Source of the DNA: Haliotis cracherodii
Taxonomy: Eukaryota
Direction: 5' to 3'
Assembly (NCBI RefSeq): GCF_022045235.1
Contig: NW_027266275.1
Location: 36,084,001 to 36,148,000, forward strand
Length of the DNA stretch: 64,000 nucleotides
In this document: positions 3,191 to 3,912 of the stretch, piece by piece
How the letters are laid out: every line of letters starts with the position of its first letter
Numbering within the stretch: position 1 is the stretch's first letter
Notes under the pieces: generated by a model
What the model saw: only the letters and a program-made list of their open reading frames with translations
Told to the model about the DNA's origin: nothing
Databases searched by the model: none
Position numbers and translations under genes: made by a program

Positions 3191-3298
3191 CTTTTCACAT
3201 AGTGTTTTCACTTGGTTTTCTGACAGTTGCTTGCACTCGTTCAGTTGCTCTATCCATTGGTCAAGTTCTTTGGCCGAAGCCCTATCTTCCACCATCAT
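3191..3298 (-). CDS. PPP2CA: Serine/threonine protein phosphatase 2A catalytic subunit, first coding exon (rest of gene lies left of the window)
   Basis: Minus-strand translation [36 protein letters not shown] matches the PP2Ac N-terminus ([25 protein letters not shown]). It ends at a phase-0 GT donor (3190-3189), the same position as vertebrate intron 1. An upstream acceptor ttttatttcag lies at 3350-3340. No exon 2 (GDVHGQ) seen in 1-3190. Confidence 0.93.
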
Positions 3299-3618
3299 CT
3301 GGACAGATTTGATTTAAACTTCAGTTTCGAAAACAATGTCTGAAATAAAACAAAATTTAGAAATATGAAGAAACTCTGTGGTCACAAAATGAACGCTGTT
3401 CATAGGATCAAGACCAGACAAAATGGCCGCTGATTTTGCTTTTCGCGAATGACGTCATAACAACATGCACATAAGAAATGTTTCCAATAAATATAAAAGT
3501 GGGCTGTGCATTGAGACCAAACTATTTCCATTCGTTTACTGGAAGTCTTACACATCTAACTGCAGAGGAAGAAAGTTGTTCAAGCCATAATAACTATAGA
3601 ATATGATAATTAGTTTAC

Positions 3619-3797
3619 CTGCCGCCCCGGCTTCGAAACAGGAGATACAAATCGCAGCACCCTCTGGCGGGTGTAAGGTGCGCAACTTCCGCCCTGCAAT
3701 CTTTCTTTTTCCGGTCGGCCATACACCTAAATGGCCGTGATTCCATAGGGGGCTTTGATAATCCATTATTATCAGTAAAAGCTGCTACTAAATCGCC
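3619..3797. promoter_or_regulatory. Compact bidirectional promoter region PP2Ac/RACK1 with TCT/5'TOP initiator
   Basis: Pyrimidine tract ctttctttttcc at 3701-3712 (TOP/TCT-like start, expected for RACK1). ETS/GABP core acttccg at 3685-3691. CTCF-like ccgccagagggtgctg on the minus strand at 3655-3670. YY1-like aaatggccg near 3730. Minus-strand donor cag|gtaaac at 3618 suggests a non-coding PP2Ac exon just left of 3660. Confidence 0.65.
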
Positions 3798-3912
3798 ATG
3801 GCGGCGCAAGAACAGATGACTTTAAAGGGTACCCTTGAGGGCCACGGCAATTGGGTCACACAGATTGCCACGAATCCTCAGTACCCTGACACTATTTTGT
3901 CGGCATCCCGAG
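3798..3912 (+). CDS. RACK1: RACK1 coding exon 1
   Basis: gccATGg start, [38 protein letters not shown], donor g|gtaaat. Confidence 0.96.

Follow-up and report, generated by a model that had tools for sequence, protein, structure and literature searches.

Do two neighboring genes whose products bind each other share one promoter, or only a short piece of old DNA? The question is raised by the 64,000-nucleotide stretch of Haliotis cracherodii DNA analyzed here (the window, G000:C12:36084001-36148000), in which the genes for the scaffold RACK1 and for the catalytic subunit of PP2A (PP2Ac) lie on opposite strands and face away from each other, with their ATGs 499 bp apart. The head-to-head layout, with the gap given as 500 bp, had been recognized in a first-pass annotation, which suggested that the two may be co-transcribed from one bidirectional promoter in this lineage. 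The reading preferred here, with reasonable though far from complete confidence, is that of an ancient, losable head-to-head housekeeping pair with likely separate core promoters, whose link persists as viable breaks are rare.

The PP2Ac and RACK1 Genes

The coding parts of the two genes are as follows.

3191..3298, minus strand: PP2Ac coding exon 1 (108 nt, 36 codons; GT donor at 3190)
1..3190, minus strand: part of PP2Ac intron 1 (~5.4 kb in total, extending left of the window)
G000:C12:36081804-36078505, minus strand: PP2Ac coding exons 2-7, left of the window, from 60 kb fetched leftward
3798..3912, plus strand: RACK1 coding exon 1 (from gene structure and RNA-like contigs)
5553-5724, 6926-7073, 7190-7285, 7639-7749, 8485-8625, and 9043-9219, plus strand: RACK1 coding exons 2-7

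The 36-codon minus-strand exon had been taken for the PP2Ac N-terminus, and this identity is borne out by the PDB, where all 14 matches of its 36-residue peptide are chains of PP2A complexes (best E 4.9e-12), 13 of them named PP2A catalytic subunit and one labeled A subunit. The exon is no orphan, as six further PP2Ac coding exons lie to the left of the window. The seven exons measure 108, 210, 174, 90, 162, 119, and 73 nt, every intron is GT-AG, and the open frame encodes 311 aa with the PP2Ac N-terminus, the PPP motifs, and the C-terminus TPDYFL. One full-identity match to PP2Ac was found in a genome search that gives a lower bound, and exon 2 matches other PPP genes of the genome at only 50-74%. 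PP2Ac is an intact, spliced, single-copy gene of seven exons.

Rfam places a weak match to mir-3661 at 3194-3278 on the plus strand (29.8 bits against a threshold of 77). Human miR-3661 is described in a published passage as a cis-antisense miRNA targeting PPP2CA, and the subthreshold match is for this reason read as a probable likeness of the coding exon. An Rfam search of five related loci gave no match.

RACK1 has seven coding exons across 3798-9219 and encodes a WD40 protein of 319 aa that is 80% identical to amphioxus and fish RACK1; for this gene, too, one full-identity match was found, as a lower bound from the genome search. Its intron 1 harbors an 85-bp unit in three tandem copies behind a SINE-like element (4780-5030).

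The remainder of the window is rich in repeats. Two near-identical single-exon Ras-like genes on the plus strand (33604-34242 and 51391-52029), with Tc1-like and further repeat copies behind each, resemble the product of a local segmental duplication. A Ras-like ORF of the window is identical to a protein named for an abalone (Haliotis), in keeping with the genome of a gastropod mollusc. A presumably Harbinger-like element, whose ORFs are transposase-like and DNA-binding, occurs in two near-identical copies at 38170-40800 and 45125-47780. A series of long frame-shifted ORFs of 163-570 aa at 18565-23991 (plus) is probably the remnant of a large transposon, and a tandem array of a ~66-bp unit at 12930-13853 (plus) reads as a 307-aa open frame.

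Transcript Ends in the Interval

Contigs from four of 24 listed runs (X1, X3, X4, and X19) were aligned over 3000-4200. The RNA-like status of X1, X3, and X4 is taken from their spliced loose ends, no run being on record as RNA. Contig depth was not used to rank PP2Ac against RACK1, and the stretches lacking contig cover (3341-3424 and 3621-3704) were excluded as evidence. X19 spans the region as two contigs with a 19-letter overlap, which was not counted as bridging, and shows no loose ends at 3190 or 3916. At these positions, the loose ends of X1, X3, and X4 match PP2Ac exon 2 and RACK1 exon 2, respectively; therefore, both genes are spliced. RNA-like contigs of the two genes reach 3340 and 3705, as befits a divergent pair.

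On the RACK1 side, the contigs start at 3705 (X3), 3719 (X4), and 3788 (X1), fitting a transcription start in the pyrimidine tract at 3701. On the PP2Ac side, two of the three RNA-like runs have a contig that continues unspliced past the AG at 3300, to 3340 (X3) and 3330 (X4), while that of X1 stops at 3290. The end of the X3 contig coincides with the G of an acceptor-like TTTCAG, so that PP2Ac may have a 5′ UTR intron or a start near 3340. A low-depth X4 contig at 3425-3620 ends both at a donor-like site and beside the predicted PP2Ac start; it is as deep as the intron contigs and may for this reason be DNA or pre-mRNA.

The first-pass annotation had called a minus-strand donor at 3618. An untranslated PP2Ac exon ending there would bring the two starts within ~100 bp of each other, on one bidirectional core promoter from which the binding partners are co-transcribed. 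A donor-like AG/GTAAAC does stand at 3618 (by chance, 0.13 copies of AGGTAA would be expected in 320 bp of a single strand), the acceptor-like AG at 3340 marks the end of one contig, the X4 contig ends at 3620, and the interval 3601-3700 is a GC/CpG-rich patch (53% GC, 7 CpG). However, the donor word is common, joints or loose ends at 3300, 3340, or 3618 are absent from all four runs, and a donor at 3618 would be expected to branch at 3342, not 3340. What stands of the donor is the word, not its use. Conserved promoter elements and fly expression, described below, also speak against a single core promoter, which is judged unlikely.

The Same Pair in Fly and in Metagenome Loci

Fly Rack1 and mts have neighboring CG numbers. 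Published passages confirm that Rack1 is CG7111 and mts is CG7109, and file 1 of PMC2670823 lists the two as divergent on 2L of D. melanogaster, 491 bp apart. According to passages of a gene-model paper, Rack1 lies upstream of mts in D. melanogaster and has other neighbors in D. mojavensis; the pair is broken in the latter. By name, GNB2L1, RACK1, and PPP2CA are absent from the seven supplementary files of divergent pairs of PMC2670823, and rack-1, let-92, ASC1, cpc2, and PPH21 from its file 2; yeast PPH22 is paired with a different gene in the list. A divergent Metallophos-WD40 row for Aedes, Anopheles, and Drosophila in file 4 of PMC2871058 fits the pair but is given at family level only and is not counted.

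A search of metagenomes with the exon 1 pattern gave 74 PP2Ac-like loci (numbered L), of which L031, L042, and L043 were dropped, not being PP2Ac orthologues. Seventeen are transcript-like, and 47 others form 18 intron-bearing groups. RACK1 stands head-to-head in 12 of the 74, and in the nine loci measured the ATGs are 426-772 bp apart. At least 1 kb of upstream sequence is available in 11 of the 18 groups, with RACK1 head-to-head in four and missing from seven. L067, whose sequence breaks off within a RACK1-like start at a distance of 576 bp, was left out of the head-to-head count. RACK1 is absent from all seven loci in which PP2Ac lacks its first intron. In a RACK1 tree of 31 rows, the window, L018, and L029 fall in an unsettled bilaterian fork; L020 was excluded for having too few residues. 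A search with an exon of L029 was dominated by WD40 proteins. The L011 group is presumably insect-like, as judged by an N-terminal signature.

Among the loci lacking the pair, the L013/L024 and L021/L059 groups represent two PP2Ac types within the same assemblies (e.g., L034 with L059, L022 with L037), neither with RACK1 nor the CRE module described below; the pair was possibly lost in them after duplication. L028, L044, and L079 have an intronless PP2Ac with a second partial copy ~4.4 kb downstream. The human RACK1 gene and PPP2CA both lie on 5q, tens of Mb apart.

The same orthologues in the same orientation are thus found in a mollusc, an insect, and four unplaced groups, and the view that the pairing is specific to the abalone lineage has to be given up: the layout recurs in D. 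melanogaster and on several unrelated contigs from animals. Head-to-head pairs are common, with 2,199 listed for the fly (PMC2670823), and a chance or convergent arrangement peculiar to the abalone genome would need nothing more; given the recurrence in fly and in four independent contig groups, with a promoter module in common, it is scarcely credible. The presence of the pair in mollusc and insect would date it to the protostome ancestor, and the last common ancestor of molluscs and insects likely already had the RACK1-PP2Ac pairing. In the literature covered, no paper was found on cross-phylum conservation of the pair, which the supplementary lists of PMC3514665 and PMC3483549 or file 1 of PMC4132727 may hold; three other supplements of PMC4132727 do not list it.

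Elements Between the Two Starts

The following features were identified between the coding exons.

3299..3427, minus strand: predicted unspliced PP2Ac 5′ UTR (129 nt; 3299-3340 in RNA-like contigs, 3341-3427 motif-inferred)
3314-3403, minus strand: 29-codon uORF in the predicted PP2Ac 5′ UTR, ending 15 nt before the main ATG
3420..3430, minus strand: YY1-like/initiator word GCGGCCATTTT; predicted PP2Ac start at ~3424-3430
3450..3457, unstranded: CRE, perfect palindrome TGACGTCA, ~23-30 bp upstream of the predicted PP2Ac start
3658..3670, minus strand: CTCF-like site between both predicted starts, 1 mismatch to consensus
3685..3691, plus strand: ETS-like ACTTCCG (core CTTCCG, 3686-3691), weak
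3701..3714, plus strand: pyrimidine tract (TOP/TCT-like) at the RACK1 5′ end, with TTTTCCGG as its last letters; predicted RACK1 start
3731..3748, plus strand: 5-codon uORF in the RACK1 5′ UTR; one arm of a predicted hairpin contains its ATG

Transcripts of 5′ TOP or TCT-initiator genes start at a C followed by a run of pyrimidines. The tract called TOP earlier at 3701 is present as a pyrimidine run (3701-3712), and the RNA-like contig X3 starts inside it at 3705, although contigs cannot show a cap. TTTTCCGG lies ~100 bp before the RACK1 ATG here and 96-101 bp before it in L018, L020, and L029; it occurs in none of the nine RACK1-negative loci checked. The 5-codon uORF is spanned by contig X3 with zero differences, and the whole RACK1 5′ UTR folds with z = -2.2; a uORF and predicted hairpin are unexpected in a TOP-type mRNA. 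The RACK1 leaders of L018, L020, and L029 have AAATCCAC and TCTAC in common, leader words that the window partly echoes (AATCCA, CTAC).

On the PP2Ac side, the word at 3420-3430, which is assumed to be YY1-like or initiator-like, reads CGGCCATTTT in the PP2Ac direction (3430-3420), downstream of the CRE. The pair of CRE and YY1-like word occurs once in 124 kb and in none of 500 shuffles. The CTCF-like site, scored against what is taken to be the CTCF consensus, is equaled in 7 of 500 shuffles; it is also found in L067 and in six loci of the L011 group and is absent between the starts in L018, L020, and L029. The interval had been described as holding only CTCF-like and ETS motifs, a description that overlooks the perfect CRE and the YY1-like word.

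The CRE and YY1-like module recurs in 7 of the 18 intron-bearing groups, with a strict GCCATYTT word 126-148 bp ahead of the PP2Ac ATG; CGGCCAT.T is invariant across seven aligned sequences. The module is present in L019 and L062, where RACK1 is absent within 3.1 and 1.4 kb, respectively, and therefore belongs to PP2Ac. L018 has the RACK1-PP2Ac pair and lacks the full CRE. Two of the 17 transcript-like PP2Ac contigs start exactly at GCCATYTT (0.0006 expected), in two others a GCCAT-like word follows at positions 11 and 21, and a fifth contig starts with CATTTTG; a word of this type is absent from the remaining 12. On the basis of the module position and these 5′ ends, the PP2Ac start is predicted at ~3424-3430, which would be 273 bp from the RACK1 tract. 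The two starts are likely ~270 bp apart, or up to 365 bp if PP2Ac starts near 3340; the earlier estimate of less than about 100 bp, with a PP2Ac start at 3620-3700, does not agree with either distance. Both the module and the 5′ ends of transcripts from other animals thus point to ~3427 and away from the single core promoter considered above.

The human PP2Ac-alpha promoter is reported to have a CREB-bound CRE (Sunahori et al. 2009, from the title), and PP2Ac dephosphorylates CREB according to a literature passage.

Expression, Protein Binding, and Regulatory Coupling

Expression can be compared for the fly only, in old microarray sets. In the portions of PMC2670823 available, Rack1 and mts give r = -0.32 (p = 1.3e-5) in the first set (file 6) and r = 0.11 (p = 0.15) in the second, and the third has no value. 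The published fly data thus show no positive correlation of the kind that co-regulation would predict or that a single promoter would produce. The proposal that scaffold and phosphatase are co-transcribed is not supported by these values, by the break in D. mojavensis, and by the PP2Ac module standing without RACK1.

The premise that RACK1 binds PP2A in mammalian cells is sound: published passages of a review place the contact in human breast cancer cells at Tyr302 of RACK1. The corresponding residue is kept in abalone RACK1 as Tyr304. Nothing found ties RACK1-PP2A binding to gene order or transcription.

It may also be asked whether selection for regulatory coupling holds the pair together, the elements between the starts (e.g., the strong RACK1 promoter, the CRE) acting on both genes, positively or reciprocally. 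The significant negative correlation in the fly could itself be coupling, the two proteins interact in human cells, the gaps of mollusc, fly, and unplaced animals all fall within 426-772 bp, and short gaps and co-expression are over-represented among ancient 5′-5′ pairs in the available part of PMC3514665. However, the pair is lost in D. mojavensis and missing from 7 of the 11 informative groups, the PP2Ac module stands without RACK1, and neither gene appears, under the names searched, in the vertebrate, worm, and yeast divergent-pair lists. Coupling is accordingly regarded as possible but doubtful.

A bolder version, a little more doubtful again, sees block and module as one regulatory unit since the protostome or bilaterian ancestor, with CREB feedback and a link to ribosome output. 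If true, dephosphorylation of CREB by PP2A, at a CRE maintained in place for more than 500 million years, would feed back negatively on PP2A transcription; linkage to the promoter of ribosomal RACK1 would couple the amount of phosphatase to ribosome output; and in vertebrates the CRE would have outlasted the separation of the two genes.

A Losable Ancient Pair with Probably Separate Promoters

The preferred reading, an ancient pair that can be lost, would work as follows. Each gene would be driven by its own core promoter, with two promoter types in one short interval, and comparison of the sequences suggests such separate modules. PP2Ac would start at the YY1-like word (~3424-3430), with the CRE just upstream, and RACK1 at the TOP/TCT-type tract at ~3701; the CTCF-like sequence between both starts is predicted to be a possible boundary. 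With two essential promoters packed into a few hundred bases, little room would be left for breakpoints that can be survived. The link would therefore decay slowly, and a break, once it has occurred, would end it without harm. Linkage would not be kept for matching the levels of scaffold and phosphatase.

Several observations pull the other way. The RNA-like contigs end at 3290, 3330, and 3340, short of 3427, and the predicted PP2Ac 5′ UTR would hold a 29-codon uORF. L018, L020, and L029 have no CTCF-like site, and L018 has no full CRE. Retention of a gap below 800 bp over more than 500 million years may need selection.

Comparison with Known Systems

Few gene neighbors survive between flies and molluscs; RACK1-PP2Ac does. 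Promoter elements that are recognizably kept across phyla are uncommon. One locus of 500 bp here combines kept neighbors with kept promoter elements and can be tested directly in Drosophila, in which Rack1 and mts have both been studied in depth. Whether common regulation or rarely survived breaks keep ancient head-to-head pairs together can be asked cleanly at this locus, which is also a caution that gene neighbors with binding proteins need not be co-expressed. Human RACK1 is not adjacent to the PP2Ac-alpha gene, unlike in abalone.

The closest known system is Rack1/mts of Drosophila (Yang and Yu 2009, PMC2670823), with the same orthologues and orientation and a gap of 491 bp versus 499 bp from ATG to ATG here. 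In the portion of that work available, however, the pair is one row among 2,199 fly pairs, with no link to other phyla or to a promoter module. A CRE is likewise reported for the human PP2Ac-alpha promoter (Sunahori et al. 2009).

The pair fits the known class of ancient 5′-5′ microsyntenic pairs, 46 of which are kept in flies according to the available part of Irimia et al. 2012 (PMC3514665). Hspd1-Hspe1, an example from that work, likewise joins unrelated genes across a short gap in several phyla. However, Hspd1-Hspe1 shows r = 0.81 and is kept in nearly all species, whereas RACK1-PP2Ac is often lost and its fly correlation is not positive. The pairs separated by the BEAF-32 insulator (Yang, Ramos, and Corces 2012, PMC3483549, in part) likewise have close divergent starts with a boundary-type site between them. 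These are non-coexpressed and described for Drosophila, whereas the abalone locus has a CTCF-like sequence alone, absent in three scored loci. On this comparison, RACK1-PP2Ac would appear to work more like the insulator-separated pairs of the fly than like Hspd1-Hspe1.
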